Of a DNA stretch of 64,000 nucleotides, positions 32,652-36,340 are shown in pieces. The position numbers and the translations under genes were made by a program. Positions within the stretch are counted from its first letter, which is position 1. Every line of letters starts with the position of its first letter. The notes under the pieces are model-generated. The model was not told the DNA's origin, did no database searches, and saw nothing but the letters and a program-made list of their open reading frames with translations. The DNA comes from a phage. Location of the stretch: the sequence record PZ386977.1. One strand, written 5' to 3'.

Positions 32652-32667
32652 GGGAGCCGAAGCTCCC
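32652..32667 (-). terminator. intrinsic terminator GGGAGC-UUCG-GCUCCC + UUUUGUG downstream of gene 52
   Basis: Perfect 6-bp stem, tetraloop, T-run on minus strand. Confidence 0.7.
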
Positions 32668-32743
32668 TAATCGTGATTGTCCAACCAATACAGCCAAATC
32701 ACTAGTGCAGCTATTGCACCGATAAATCCTAAGGCTAGGGCAC

Positions 32744-34069
32744 TCAAAGTGCCTCCAAGTCTTTAGTGTACTCTGTCACAACATCAGTAGACTTCCAATA
32801 CTCATTTTCTTCTTTCTTAGCTTTAGCTTCTTCTGCTAGTTTACGTGCTTCATCGGAAGTGATATGGAAGATGTTAAGACCTACTAGTTTATCGACGTGT
32901 TCTTTGTACATTTCGATTTGTGCTAGCTCTTCAGTCAAAGCTTTACGGGTCTTGCCTTGAATCACAATTTCGCCGGCAATAACTTTTTTGATGAAGTGTG
33001 CCTTAGCAAAAGCCAGTTTAAATGCTTTTTCAGATTCAAGAATTTTGTTGTCGATACGTTTCTGAACGTAAGTCTTACGGACTTCAACAAAATCTTTGAT
33101 TAAGTCTACTACATTATCGTAGACAGCTAATTTACCCTTTTCATTAATCACTGTAATGTTTTGTGAACGACGTTCGATGAGACTAAAATCTTTCATGATT
33201 TTTTCATGACGTAGCTCTTCGTCATCTGGAAGCGAGTACTCTTTACGGAACTTCACCTTAAACCCAAAGCCGTGTTCACCACAATCATCTTCCCATGAGA
33301 TTAGACCTTTATCTTCTAATGGGTCAAGAACCTTACTCACATACGTTTCACGGTCGAATTTATATGGTATTTCAGTTATCTGCATTTGAGTGCGAGATGT
33401 GAACTTATATGTTCCGTGAATCTCGTACCGTCCATCAACTTCATGTACTTCACCACTGAATTCCGGGAATTCAACTTTTGGCTTAGTGACATTTTTACCT
33501 TGAAGAGCTTGTAATACAGCCTTTTTTACCGATTTAAAACTATGAGGCAGAATATTTGTTGCGTAACCGGTTGCAATACCAGATACACCATTCAAAAGAA
33601 CTGTCGGAACAATAGGAAGATAGAATTTTGGTGGAACGTGTTCTTTATCTTCATGAGCTGGAGCATATTCAGTATCTTTATAGACATTATAGAAATTTTT
33701 ACTTACACGAGCAAAAATATAACGAGATGCTGCAGCTTTTTGGACTGTTCGAGAACCAAAGTTGCCTTGACCATCTAATAGTGGATAGTTGTTGTTCCAT
33801 GTGTTAGCCATTAATGCACCTGCATCTTGTGCAGAAGATTCACCATGGTGATAACCTAAATCTGCAACACCGCCTGCAATTGACGCAAGTTTATGAAATT
33901 TTTCTTTATTACCACGAGCCAAATCTAACGCACGATGAACCACAAAACGTTGAACCGGCTTAAATCCATCAATCATGTTTGGGATTGCACGGTTTTCAAC
34001 GGTGTACATCGCATATGCTAAGGCTTCGTTATCAATAATACTTTTTAGATTACGAGAATTCAATTGCAT
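32744..34069 (-). CDS. 52: gp52 DNA topoisomerase II medium subunit (GyrA-like)
   Basis: 441 aa; MQLNSRNLKSIIDNEALAYAMYTVENRAIPNMIDGFKPVQRF...; active-site tyrosine context. Confidence 0.95.
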   Translation of the reverse strand: MQLNSRNLKSIIDNEALAYAMYTVENRAIPNMIDGFKPVQRFVVHRALDLARGNKEKFHKLASIAGGVADLGYHHGESSAQDAGALMANTWNNNYPLLDGQGNFGSRTVQKAAASRYIFARVSKNFYNVYKDTEYAPAHEDKEHVPPKFYLPIVPTVLLNGVSGIATGYATNILPHSFKSVKKAVLQALQGKNVTKPKVEFPEFSGEVHEVDGRYEIHGTYKFTSRTQMQITEIPYKFDRETYVSKVLDPLEDKGLISWEDDCGEHGFGFKVKFRKEYSLPDDEELRHEKIMKDFSLIERRSQNITVINEKGKLAVYDNVVDLIKDFVEVRKTYVQKRIDNKILESEKAFKLAFAKAHFIKKVIAGEIVIQGKTRKALTEELAQIEMYKEHVDKLVGLNIFHITSDEARKLAEEAKAKKEENEYWKSTDVVTEYTKDLEAL

Positions 34070-34073
34070 ATTT

Positions 34074-34214
34074 TCACCATATTAATGAACGAATAACCAT
34101 TATAACATCTGAAATGAAAAGCACTACTTGTATTAGCCCAAACATCACACCGTAGTACAGAACCGTAAGCAACAACAAGAGCCCGAAGGCTCCTGCTAAG
34201 ATTTTCTTAATCAT
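34074..34214 (-). CDS. small hydrophobic protein (46 aa)
   Basis: Own translation MIKKILAGAFGLLLLLTVLYYGVMFGLIQVV...; ATG overlaps upstream stop (TAATG); below track cutoff. Confidence 0.4.
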   Translation of the reverse strand: MIKKILAGAFGLLLLLTVLYYGVMFGLIQVVLFISDVIMVIRSLIW

Positions 34215-34360
34215 TACTCGCCTTTTAACACGTTAAAAAGAGCTAAGACCGCTAAGGTGCCTTGTGATACGGCCTGTTGAAATACCGTTGTTTCGCCTGT
34301 AACTAAAGTGTTAACGAATAAAAACGACCAACACAACAATGCAATAATCCATGATACCAT
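34214..34360 (-). CDS. small hydrophobic protein (48 aa)
   Basis: Own translation MVSWIIALLCWSFLFVNTLVTGE...; GAGG SD; below track cutoff. Confidence 0.4.
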   Translation of the reverse strand: MVSWIIALLCWSFLFVNTLVTGETTVFQQAVSQGTLAVLALFNVLKGE

Positions 34361-34412
34361 TTTAATTACCTCACAAATAAATTAAAGGCCTATTAAGTTA
34401 GGCCTGTATAAA

Positions 34413-34859
34413 TTAGTAACTCTGCAGAATAAATTTGAAATTATCGGCCAGAAGACGGTTCATTTCAGTGAGTGTTTGATATTCTGATGTATGGTTGCGA
34501 GTGAACGCTAGAGCCAATTGTCCTTTACCATAACCAGTGGTCAGAGGTTTCATGTTCTTAGCTGAAACAAAGATTACATCGTATTCAATATTGTTAGTGC
34601 CCATGGTACGAGCTAGTTGTGAACGGCCTTGACGAATGTGAGAAAGAATTGCATCTAACCCTTGTTTAGAACGTTGACGTCCTACAAAGAATCGTGCTGC
34701 TACTTGACGCCAGTCAGATGAACCTTTAACGAAGAAGTAAAAACCTTCACGAGAACGAAACTCTTTAGAAACTTCAGAACCATATTCGCCATTACGAACT
34801 ACTGCAACAACTTCACCGCCAACTGCCAGAAGGTCTTTACGAGTTAAATATTTGGACAT
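34413..34859 (-). CDS. ndd: Ndd nucleoid-disruption protein
   Basis: 148 aa; ...[12 protein letters not shown]...[14 protein letters not shown]...[22 protein letters not shown] matches T4 Ndd. Confidence 0.85.
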
Positions 34860-34935
34860 GCTAATTTCCTCAATTGATTAATGTTTTTGTAATCCATGAG
34901 AGCATTATACTCTGCTCTCAAGAGTTTGTACAATT

Positions 34936-35136
34936 TTATTCGGTTATATCAGAACGTTCAAAAAGCTCTTCAACAGTTAAACATTCGGTGTCATCCTCAA
35001 TAAAGAATCGGGTCCAACACGTTGGGGCAATGCAGTTATGAGTTTGTCCGGCGATAGAAGCTACACGAATAAGCTGCTGTCCATTATTCAGGACGAATTT
35101 TTCACCAATTTCAACATCTTTAAAAAGCTTAGCCAT
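34936..35136 (-). CDS. hypothetical protein (66 aa)
   Basis: ORF track; promoter upstream. Confidence 0.5.
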   Translation of the reverse strand: MAKLFKDVEIGEKFVLNNGQQLIRVASIAGQTHNCIAPTCWTRFFIEDDTECLTVEELFERSDITE

Positions 35137-35165
35137 TTTGTATTCCTCGTGTTTTGATAGGACTA

Positions 35166-35195
35166 CTATACCATAATCCTACCTTGTTGTAAACA
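35166..35195 (-). promoter_or_regulatory. early promoter, PeSL-like (-10 inside taggact/aatccta repeat)
   Basis: gtaaac 35190-35195, actata 35166-35171. Confidence 0.55.
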
Positions 35196-35386
35196 ATTAA
35201 ATTACATTAAAATATGTTAAAGCTAACCATGTTCCAGTGAATGAACATGCAATGTAAAAAACCGTATCACAAATTGTTCTTAGTACAATAAGAAGTGCAT
35301 TTTTCATAAGTACCTCAACACAATTGAAAATATTATACAAATCATTGGGATACTAAGCAACCATATTCCGATCCACATTTTAGAGC

Positions 35387-35650
35387 TCATATCTCAACTT
35401 CCGCGAGTTCCATATATCCTTTGTTGATAACCTCTTTAAGGTCTTTAGAAAGAATAACACCAAAATGGTCGTTCATATGTCCGTTAACTAAACGAGTTAT
35501 TTCGGCTTCAGATGACATATAAGGCACGTCCGAGTCCCAATGAGATAGACTTAAATGAGTATAAATCATCCCTTCGTCATCTGCTGTGTTGTACATTGAA
35601 ACAAACTCACCGGTCACTTTATGTTTTGCGTAGAAAAATTTAAATTTCAT
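35387..35650 (-). CDS. hypothetical protein (87 aa)
   Basis: ORF track; promoter upstream. Confidence 0.5.
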   Translation of the reverse strand: MKFKFFYAKHKVTGEFVSMYNTADDEGMIYTHLSLSHWDSDVPYMSSEAEITRLVNGHMNDHFGVILSKDLKEVINKGYMELAEVEI

Positions 35651-35719: not shown

Positions 35720-36340
35720 TTAAAGATGAAGATACCAACCGTTGTAGTTGCTCTTACGAACGATTTTCTTTAGGTCTTCATGGTCTCCCACGAACTTTAT
35801 AGAATAAGAGAAGACGTCAGGTGAGGTTTCTTTGACATTCAATATAATAATACAGTCTGCAACTCGATGATTAAGGAAGGGCCCTATGTTGATTCCGTTG
35901 CCACCCGGATAATCACCACTGTATCCTGTGGTAACAGAAATCCATTTAGAATCCATCTGATGTGTCTTGACTTCTACACGAATTCCACAATATTTAGGAT
36001 GGGCTAACACGTCCCACGCATACGTGTACGGGTCTTCTACGTCTTCAATACCTTTATTAACATATCCGTCTAGCCAATTTGCTACTACATACTCTGCAAA
36101 GACTGCAACCTTACAACGTCGAACTACGTCTTCTTTTATTTGACCTGGATCTTGTTTCAACGAGTACCGAGCAGTGTCAGCAATCTTCACTTTCATTTCA
36201 CTAGTCAAAAACTCATTCGACAGGATAAATGTCGGAAGATTCTTCAGTCTCAACAGTCCCAAGTTCGTCTTTACCATAGATACCTCTGATGTGTAGTTCG
36301 CCAAAATAAATGCGGTCTCCTTCTTCAAGATAGTTAGCAT
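35720..36340 (-). CDS. denB: DenB (endonuclease IV)-like by position; true start probably internal
   Basis: 206-aa ORF between ndd block and rIIB; sequence not independently recognised. Confidence 0.45.
   Translation of the reverse strand: MLTILKKETAFILANYTSEVSMVKTNLGLLRLKNLPTFILSNEFLTSEMKVKIADTARYSLKQDPGQIKEDVVRRCKVAVFAEYVVANWLDGYVNKGIEDVEDPYTYAWDVLAHPKYCGIRVEVKTHQMDSKWISVTTGYSGDYPGGNGINIGPFLNHRVADCIIILNVKETSPDVFSYSIKFVGDHEDLKKIVRKSNYNGWYLHL

Follow-up and report, generated by a model that had tools for sequence, protein, structure and literature searches.

The two small hydrophobic open reading frames (ORFs) between ndd and gene 52 in this phage DNA (sequence record PZ386977.1; the whole 64,000-nucleotide stretch analyzed is referred to here as the window) are conserved genes that encode very hydrophobic α-helical peptides of 48 and 46 amino acids (aa). 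The 48-aa ORF is almost certainly ac and the 46-aa ORF gene 52.1, and it is highly probable that the two are the Mosigvirus (RB69/HX01-type) orthologs of these T4 genes, with a mechanism derived from T4. Both are known genes of T4, many Mosigvirus records annotate them, and they are not new. The initial annotation had described two overlapping hydrophobic ORFs of 46 and 48 aa between ndd and 52, with SD sequences and TAATG coupling; the ORFs are confirmed, on the minus strand (the initial annotation gave no strand), and GAGG, AAGG, and TAATG can all be read in the sequence (Table 1).

Table 1. Features of the ndd-gene 52 interval and its neighbors (positions are those of the window)
Feature	Position	Strand	Description
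ac (ORF A)	34360..34214	minus	ATG start; 48 aa; MVSWIIALLCWSFLFVNTLVTGETTVFQQAVSQGTLAVLALFNVLKGE
Gene 52.1 (ORF B)	34214..34074	minus	ATG start; 46 aa; MIKKILAGAFGLLLLLTVLYYGVMFGLIQVVLFISDVIMVIRSLIW; hydrophobic, conserved
TAATG stop/start overlap, ac/52.1	34216..34212	minus	Read from the sequence
SD-like GAGG	34372..34369	minus	8 nt 5′ of the ac ATG; read from the sequence
SD-like AAGG	34224..34221	minus	6 nt 5′ of the 52.1 ATG; read from the sequence
ndd, nucleoid disruption protein	34859..34413	minus	Pfam Phage_T4_Ndd, E = 2e-89; phrog_1102, E = 1.4e-56; upstream neighbor
Gene 52, topoisomerase II medium subunit	34069..32744	minus	phrog_551, E = 2.7e-216; Pfam DNA_topoisoIV, E = 1.2e-77; downstream neighbor
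Predicted P52 ortholog (T4 middle promoter)	34123..34099	minus	MotA box TGCTTT, 12 nt, extended -10 TGtTATAAT; 52.1 codons 31-39
Stem-loop	34405..34386	minus	AGGCCT, 8-nt loop, AGGCCT, extendable to 7 pairs, then T-rich run; terminator-like; ndd-ac spacer

The 1-kb stretch around the locus is 97 to 98% identical to approximately 150 Mosigvirus records in GenBank, i.e., RB69/HX01/JS09-like T-even phages of Escherichia coli and Shigella; on the strength of this identity, the window is assigned to a genome of this genus, of the RB69/HX01-like type. The 48/49-aa ORF is labeled “Ac acridine resistance protein” in HX01 and many other records, and most Mosigvirus records annotate both ORFs, with the 46-aa ORF given as “hypothetical protein”; the PhAPEC2 record describes the latter as [quoted passage not shown] The gene order in the T4 reference record is ndd-stp-ac-52.1-52. 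The implication of the initial annotation that these small ORFs were unannotated therefore fails, since GenBank and RefSeq carry annotations of both in many relatives; the two small genes, though listed in reference annotations, fell below the cutoff of the ORF scan.

The junctions within the interval are compact. In the TAATG pentamer, the ac stop codon (TAA, 34216..34214) and the 52.1 start codon (ATG, 34214..34212) have one A in common, and a start/stop overlap of 1, 4, or 8 nt was present at the 5′ end of 52.1 in each phage examined. HX01 has a 4-nt ATGA overlap, with CAA (Q49) in place of TAA, and an 8-nt overlap (ATGATTAA) is found at the Tequatrovirus, Gaprivervirus, Jiaodavirus, and Dhakavirus loci and in Yersinia phage P8. 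The TGAGG(A/T)AA..ATG context of the ac start also occurs in other phage genera, and the ac SD is given as a ribosome binding site in the annotation of phage Mizar. At the other end of the pair, 4 nt separate the 52.1 stop codon from the gene 52 ATG in the window, and the SD-like GGTGA of gene 52 (34078..34074, minus) extends over the two final codons of 52.1. Thus arranged, ac, 52.1, and 52 appear to form a translationally coupled string 3′ of ndd. Directly 5′ of ac, the best candidate for a sigma70-type promoter was just a weak 9/12 match, located inside ndd, and transcription of ac by read-through from the ndd promoter is more likely. A 32-nt direct repeat shared by the ac start region and the region upstream of ndd (75% identity) was treated as chance, and an Rfam search of the ndd-52 interval gave no match.

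Identification of the 48-aa ORF draws on family membership, sequence alignment, and synteny. The ORF matches phrog_2501 (E = 4.5e-22), as do T4 Ac (E = 2.2e-25), RB32 Ac (E = 6e-25), and a Klebsiella jiaodavirus homolog (E = 2e-17), and its BLASTP alignment with T4 Ac has 37% identity over 35 residues (E = 2e-7). Synteny is as in T4: ac is on the same strand, 3′ of ndd(/stp) and 5′ of gene 52, and its stop codon overlaps the 52.1 start. In an alignment of nine Ac sequences, a hydrophobic N-terminal segment is followed by a short polar break, after which comes a conserved SVF.Q..(A/S)QG block, in which G34 of the window protein aligns with G38 of T4 Ac; the G38R substitution makes T4 acriflavine resistant (10.1101/2025.06.30.662393). 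The position four residues before this glycine is occupied by a small residue (A or S) throughout the alignment, which argues for a small-xxx-Gly helix-packing motif in the SVF block. The small-xxx-Gly face of helix 2 (A30xxxG34 in the window, A34xxxG38 in T4) is likely to be the helix-packing surface. An AlphaFold2 model of Ac, computed from a five-sequence alignment and of moderate confidence (pLDDT 76), places helices at residues 2 to 21 and 25 to 45, in agreement with the two helices of an ESMFold model of T4 Ac (10.1101/2025.06.30.662393).

T4 Ac (gene ac, 51 aa, AAD42488.1) and the window protein (48 aa) thus have similar sizes, the same protein family (phrog_2501), the same slot overlapping 52.1, and the same organization: an N-terminal hydrophobic helix, a polar break, and a second helix with SVF.Q..AQG that includes the glycine equivalent to G38, a position at which G38R abolishes the function of T4 Ac. 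Unlike T4 Ac, the window protein belongs to the RB69/RB32-type branch. Its polar break is TGET, compared to IDAS in T4 Ac, and it ends in KGE with the 1-nt TAATG overlap, whereas T4 Ac ends in ND with the 8-nt ATGATTAA overlap.

In the copies of Pfam and NCBIfam searched, no family was matched by Ac even at E values of ≤10, and a precomputed PF26944.1 tag on P0004 was not reproduced. A word-indexed family search with Ac recovered just four near-identical proteins, and phmmer, run exhaustively against 1.84 billion representatives, recovered two genuine Ac clusters together with three long repeat proteins. The latter (He_PIG/MBG/PATR domains, with GTVFE..GSGT..TLA repeats) were judged to be spurious. 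Among PDB chain sequences, Ac gave three chance-level matches only (E = 1.6; aldehyde dehydrogenase, ATPEG1), and the gp52.1 profile gave none at E values of ≤10.

The 46-aa ORF matches the full length of the Pfam DUF7396 profile (PF24129; positions 1 to 46 of 46) with 79.9 bits against a gathering cutoff of 27 (E = 1.6e-22), as well as phrog_3595 (E = 9.7e-23), and it is 72% identical to T4 gp52.1. Homologs were found by tblastn in 728 phage records; all 12 database homologs compared carry DUF7396, and 11 of the 12 are exactly 46 aa long. Twenty of the 46 columns are invariant among 13 sequences, including LYYG and QVVLFISD, and the window ORF has the pattern LYYG...QVVLFISD...SL.W, the length of 46 aa, and the position directly 5′ of gene 52. 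T4 gp52.1 (46 aa, AAD42526.1) resembles it in length, in the LYYG and QVVLFISD blocks, in adjoining gene 52, and in containing the embedded promoter P52; the two differ in the N-terminal hydrophobic stretch (residues 7 to 18), which is AGAFGLLLLLTV in the window and GYSLALAALLVA in T4. Gene 52.1 had not been considered in the initial annotation.

Hydropathy and the predicted helical models both support the proposal that the two ORFs encode membrane peptides. GRAVY values are 1.13 for the Ac peptide and 1.86 for gp52.1, higher than those of 78 and 84, respectively, of the 86 ATG-initiated ORFs of 40 to 60 aa that the window contains across all six frames. AlphaFold2 models gp52.1 as one uninterrupted helix (residues 2 to 45; pLDDT 97). 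As AlphaFold ignores the membrane, gp52.1 in the membrane could either be one long transmembrane helix or bend at LYYG into a hairpin.

An ORF of 40 to 60 aa is by itself not beyond chance, given 86 such ORFs in the window, and the status of both ORFs as genes is based on homology and conservation of frame rather than on size. Loci were compared from Mosigvirus, Tequatrovirus, Gaprivervirus, Jiaodavirus, Dhakavirus, and Yersinia phage P8. The initial annotation had named, together with lack of ribosome occupancy, nonconservation of the reading frames in related phages as refuting; both frames were open in all phages compared (9 to 11), and the annotated frame was the only one free of stop codons in all of them. 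Where dN/dS between the window and other phages could be computed, it was 0.09 to 0.58 for ac and 0.09 to 0.18 for 52.1. Between genera, dS was saturated (>1.2, often not computable), with dN of 0.36 to 0.75 for ac and 0.20 to 0.32 for 52.1, and within Mosigvirus 52.1 has one to three synonymous and no nonsynonymous differences. Both proteins are, on this comparison of sequences, under purifying selection.

Part of the conservation of 52.1 may be due to DNA rather than to protein. Codons 31 to 39 (VLFISDVIM) are encoded by GTGCTTTTCATTTCAGATGTTATAAT, and this most conserved block of 52.1 coincides with an ortholog of the T4 middle promoter P52, with the elements GTAGTGCTTTT, a 12-nt spacing, and TATAAT with an upstream TGn; the −10 hexamer is TATAAT in the window and TATTAT in T4. 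The consensus for MotA middle promoters is a (a/t)(a/t)(a/t)TGCTTtA box, 12 ± 1 bp, and a sigma70 −10 element, TAtaaT (PMC2988021). Within the window this type of pattern is not rarer than chance (24 found versus 20 expected), and the case for P52 therefore rests on conservation and orthology. P52 is found at the same codons in 11 of 11 phages from five genera, and third-codon positions are invariant in 5 of 10 degenerate codons in the P52 block versus 1 of 31 elsewhere in 52.1 (Fisher P = 0.0018). In T4 coordinates, the −10 element has its end at 165234, and the start it predicts is at 165227, identical to the mapped P52 start; Table 1 of PMC2988021, citing Stoskiene et al. (2007), prints this start as “65227,” between entries for 153011 and 166702. 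In the window, the predicted start is near 34092, ∼23 nt 5′ of the gene 52 ATG. The best-conserved stretch of gp52.1 would thus double as the promoter, predicted to be MotA type, of the topoisomerase gene.

Carried to its limit, this argument would leave neither ORF translated, with conservation of the interval explained entirely by DNA or RNA signals (P52, the hairpin, and the gene 52 SD). DNA-level constraint inside 52.1 is real, third-codon positions being frozen in codons 30 to 39, and one or the other ORF is left out by some annotators. Outside the promoter block, however, amino acids are kept while synonymous sites are saturated (dN of 0.2 to 0.36 versus dS of >1.7), and in each genus the annotated frame is the sole open frame. 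For T4 ac, moreover, phenotypes are known from missense, knockout, and deletion mutants, and expression of ac from a plasmid sensitizes E. coli (10.1101/2025.06.30.662393). Absence of translation is consequently very improbable, and we regard ac and 52.1 as protein-coding genes.

A second reading concerns Stp, with which the initial annotation had tentatively paired Ac. That proposal held for the 48-aa ORF, which is the Ac ortholog, and failed for the 46-aa ORF, which is 52.1 (DUF7396) and not stp; likewise, of the alignments to T4 Ac and Stp that it suggested, the former was obtained with the BLASTP score given above and the latter was not, the best tblastn E value for Stp being 0.14. This search, with T4 and Gaprivervirus Stp against the 64-kb window, gave only scattered chance hits, the best of them off-locus. 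Among phages at large, Stp is widespread (799 phage records at E values of ≤1, of which 609 cover ≥80% of the peptide), and stp is present at the Tequatrovirus, Gaprivervirus, and Dhakavirus loci compared. Between the ndd stop (34413) and the ac start (34360) of the window there are 52 noncoding bases and no stp ORF. A nine-residue resemblance at the syntenic spot (VTNLYRPNL versus VMQFYRNNL; E = 26) was considered as an stp relic and found to be unsupported by alignment of the spacer DNA. Stp is thus missing from the ndd-52 interval, with no recognizable homolog in the 64-kb window.

That one of the two peptides is nevertheless a Stp-like activator of the host anticodon nuclease PrrC has position in its favor, as T4 stp lies between ndd and ac, and nothing else. 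T4 Stp (26 aa, MSNFHNEHVMQ...GVFGR, a PrrC activator) shares only this ndd-ac neighborhood with the window peptides: it is polar and basic rather than a membrane peptide and has no sequence similarity to either ORF, whereas both ORFs encode hydrophobic helices. Each ORF has a clear other ortholog in T4, nothing in the window matches Stp better than the value already given, and the stp slot is here the noncoding spacer. We consider this reading vanishingly improbable, and a PrrC-related role for the pair is without support. The pair is instead already known, because ac and 52.1 are each recovered in silico as members of their own families, neither is recovered as Stp, and neither shows a sequence link to the host peptide AcrZ or to another small membrane protein of solved structure.

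The spacer that takes the place of stp contains a stem-loop, which is the only element of its centroid fold (−10.5 kcal/mol) and is annotated as a putative terminator in the PhAPEC2 record. The fold z-score of the whole 76-nt stretch is −0.66, i.e., the stretch is not more structured than its shuffles; since the 7-bp hairpin alone is stable, no regulatory RNA is claimed. In stp-bearing phages, the last stp codons (GVFGR) form a GGCGTC-TTCG-GACGCC hairpin just 5′ of the ac SD. Mosigviruses have the AGGCCT hairpin at this place instead, and a stem-loop ahead of ac, whether or not stp is present, is therefore the conserved feature.

The function of Ac can be considered through its T4 counterpart. 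Knockouts, indels, and a missense change in T4 ac lead to acriflavine resistance, and Ac expressed from a plasmid sensitizes E. coli, with Ac-expressing cells also more sensitive to ampicillin, from which the authors infer impaired efflux; the alleles behind all functional data are T4 type, the ac homologs in that study being 93 to 100% identical to T4 ac (10.1101/2025.06.30.662393). The name “acridine resistance” protein is the reverse of what the wild-type allele does in T4, which is to confer acridine sensitivity. Extrapolating from T4, Ac would be made before replication and, at an early stage of infection, would insert into the inner membrane of the host, where its presence would lead to a buildup of acridine dyes in infected cells, either through raised permeability (Silver's model) or through blockade of efflux by the AcrAB-TolC pump (the 2025 preprint). 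Because Ac would cause acridine accumulation, loss of ac would give an acridine-resistant phage. By this analogy, the Mosigvirus Ac probably confers the acridine phenotype.

Obstruction of AcrAB-TolC is argued in the preprint on the basis of the gain in ampicillin sensitivity; its evidence, not yet refereed, consists of overexpression phenotypes and structure prediction (10.1101/2025.06.30.662393), and a 2026 PNAS paper (PMC13250531) repeats the obstruction as an assumption. By analogy with these findings, efflux-pump blockade is a possible mechanism for Ac, at less than even odds. A host precedent for a small peptide at this pump is E. coli AcrZ, a 49-aa inner-membrane peptide that binds AcrB and modulates pump specificity. 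AcrZ and Ac are similar in size and are single- or double-helical membrane peptides, and Ac has also been proposed to act on AcrAB-TolC, but this is a functional analogy only: the two have no detectable sequence relationship (the PDB chains searched presumably included those of AcrZ), and AcrZ modulates the pump, while Ac is proposed to block it. The older explanation, that Ac raises the permeability of the envelope and hence the uptake of acridines (Silver, 1960s), is the historical reading of the dye-uptake experiments as the preprint recounts it (10.1101/2025.06.30.662393), and disturbance of the bilayer, or of a route that does not involve porins, would be just as conceivable for a membrane peptide with two helices. 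The ampicillin sensitivity of Ac-expressing cells, taken by the preprint authors as a sign of impaired efflux, weighs against uptake, which we consider somewhat unlikely as the mechanism.

For gp52.1, a search recovered no functional literature, and its sole mention is as an end point of the T4 deletion gp52.1-rIIB, which is viable (PMC9712115). In VR25 (Gaprivervirus) and C6 (Dhakavirus), the ac slot holds an unrelated peptide, phrog_9347, and 52.1 is kept. Most likely, gp52.1 is a small, nonessential protein of the inner membrane, co-produced with Ac or with the peptide that fills the ac slot in place of Ac, and its conservation is most likely due in part to the embedded promoter. It could alternatively serve the topoisomerase rather than Ac, for instance by tethering gp52/gp39/gp60 to the membrane or by regulating it. 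At each locus examined 52.1 sits 4 to 8 nt 5′ of gene 52, whose SD overlaps the end of 52.1; 52.1 is retained where the phrog_9347 peptide replaces ac; it is found in more records (728) than either of two Ac types (463 and 274); and the RB32 record describes gp52 as “membrane-associated.” The linkage to gene 52 is, however, partly explained by P52 lying inside 52.1, and the deletion running from 52.1 through rIIB is viable in T4, though normal replication needs gene 52 function. A topoisomerase role therefore seems improbable. Still less probable, in our estimation, is that ac and 52.1 are a coupled two-peptide inner-membrane module directed at a host envelope machine (e.g., AcrAB-TolC), in which gp52.1 is constant and the upstream slot exchangeable, filled by Ac/phrog_2501 in most T-even phages and by phrog_9347 in VR25 and C6. 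If such a module existed, acridine sensitivity would be a laboratory side effect, and its natural role would be to shut down host efflux or export during infection.

For the scan of this genome, the result is mainly negative, in that the interval holds neither a new small-peptide system nor a Stp-like activator of the anticodon nuclease. The presence of P52 within 52.1 should temper what is inferred from the conservation of the gp52.1 protein and, in the design of 52.1 mutants, makes a start-codon knockout preferable to deletion of the gene. Gene 52.1 nevertheless encodes one of the best-conserved small membrane peptides of the T-even phages.

The gene order ndd-ac-52.1-52 appears to consist of an exchangeable ac slot followed by a constant 52.1. 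In Gaprivervirus VR25 and Dhakavirus C6, the slot holds a hydrophobic peptide of the phrog_9347 family, which is unrelated to Ac but retains the terminal ...ND and the 8-nt overlap (ATGATTAA) with the start of 52.1. Ac itself falls into two divergent allele types, that of T4 and that of RB32, with 463 records matched by tblastn for the T4 type and 274 for the window type. RB32 is a Tequatrovirus, yet its Ac is of the RB69/Mosigvirus-like type, which suggests intergeneric exchange. The Ac homolog P0004 is tagged PF26944.1 in a precomputed table, but neither it nor any other Ac sequence matched the local Pfam copy, even at an E value of ≤10.

Gene 52.1 contains an element orthologous to P52, a mapped middle promoter of T4. 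This element is composed of a MotA box, 12 nt, and TGtTATAAT and coincides with VLFISDVIM, the most highly conserved block of gp52.1. Across five genera, synonymous positions are frozen at the P52 block (5 of 10, versus 1 of 31; P = 0.0018). Deletion of 52.1 would also eliminate the gene 52 middle promoter.

A stem-loop is always found 5' of the ac Shine-Dalgarno sequence in the window and in loci L003, L005, L006, L007, and L010. Where stp is present, this structure is a tetraloop hairpin formed by the final codons of that gene, whereas the AGGCCT hairpin of Mosigvirus, which lacks stp, is unrelated to it. The ac start region also carries one copy of a 32-nt direct repeat (75% identity), the other copy being just upstream of ndd near a promoter-like sequence; the repeat is probably due to chance.

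Features in and around the ndd-52 interval (window numbering unless a locus is named)
Feature	Position	Strand	Remarks
32-nt direct repeat	34345-34376; 34890-34921		
TGTACA-17-TATAAT	34932..34904		promoter-like
AGGCCT hairpin	34386-34405		with T-run
GGCGTC-TTCG-GACGCC hairpin	L003:1320-1345 (T4)		also at stp 3' ends in L005, L006, L007, L010
P52 ortholog	34099-34123	minus	within 46-aa ORF
phrog_9347 peptide	L010:541-708 (VR25); L011:547-708 (C6)		53-55 aa
Ac alleles	L003:1353-1508 (T4); L007:683-838 (RB32)		
26-aa ORF	32667-32747	minus	TTG start; hydrophobic; MSALALGFIGAIAALVIWLYWLDNHD
Small-ORF run	34936-35650	minus	upstream of ndd
DenB	35720-36340		
phrog_5941 peptide	L008:504-677, L009:504-677 (Klebsiella jiaodaviruses); L011:293-466 (C6)		57 aa; small, hydrophobic
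ECML-359 ORF	L005:387-599		hydrophobic

Further small ORFs lie in and around the interval. The 26-aa ORF shares 4 nt with the end of gene 52, including its stop, and stands where T4 has motA.1; it has no PHROG match and is annotated in HX01 as a hypothetical protein (D299_gp206). The run upstream of ndd corresponds to T4 ndd.1-ndd.x and comprises ORFs of 66 aa (Ndd.1-like), 47 and 28 aa (hydrophobic), and 87 aa; DenB comes next. In HX01 the 28-aa ORF bears the label "outer membrane protein." The phrog_5941 peptide, assigned in the Klebsiella phages and C6, lies there between ndd and ac or stp and is absent from T4 and the window; ECML-359 has a similar ORF at that position.

GenBank records of close relatives annotate the ndd-52 interval inconsistently: 52.1 is omitted in Mizar and ac in PhAPEC2 and ECML-359, 52.1 is named "recombination endonuclease subunit" in Yersinia phage P8, and features under the match in ECCR664 and vB_Eco_F27 are labeled "naphthalene 1,2-dioxygenase."

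One database protein, P0016 (47 aa; ENA contig of 2,178 bases), joins gp52.1 residues 15 to 46 in frame to a T4-like Ndd N terminus (MKYMTVTDLNNAGAT). This fusion looks like a natural deletion of most of ndd, stp, and ac, a genotype that would be expected to be acridine resistant.
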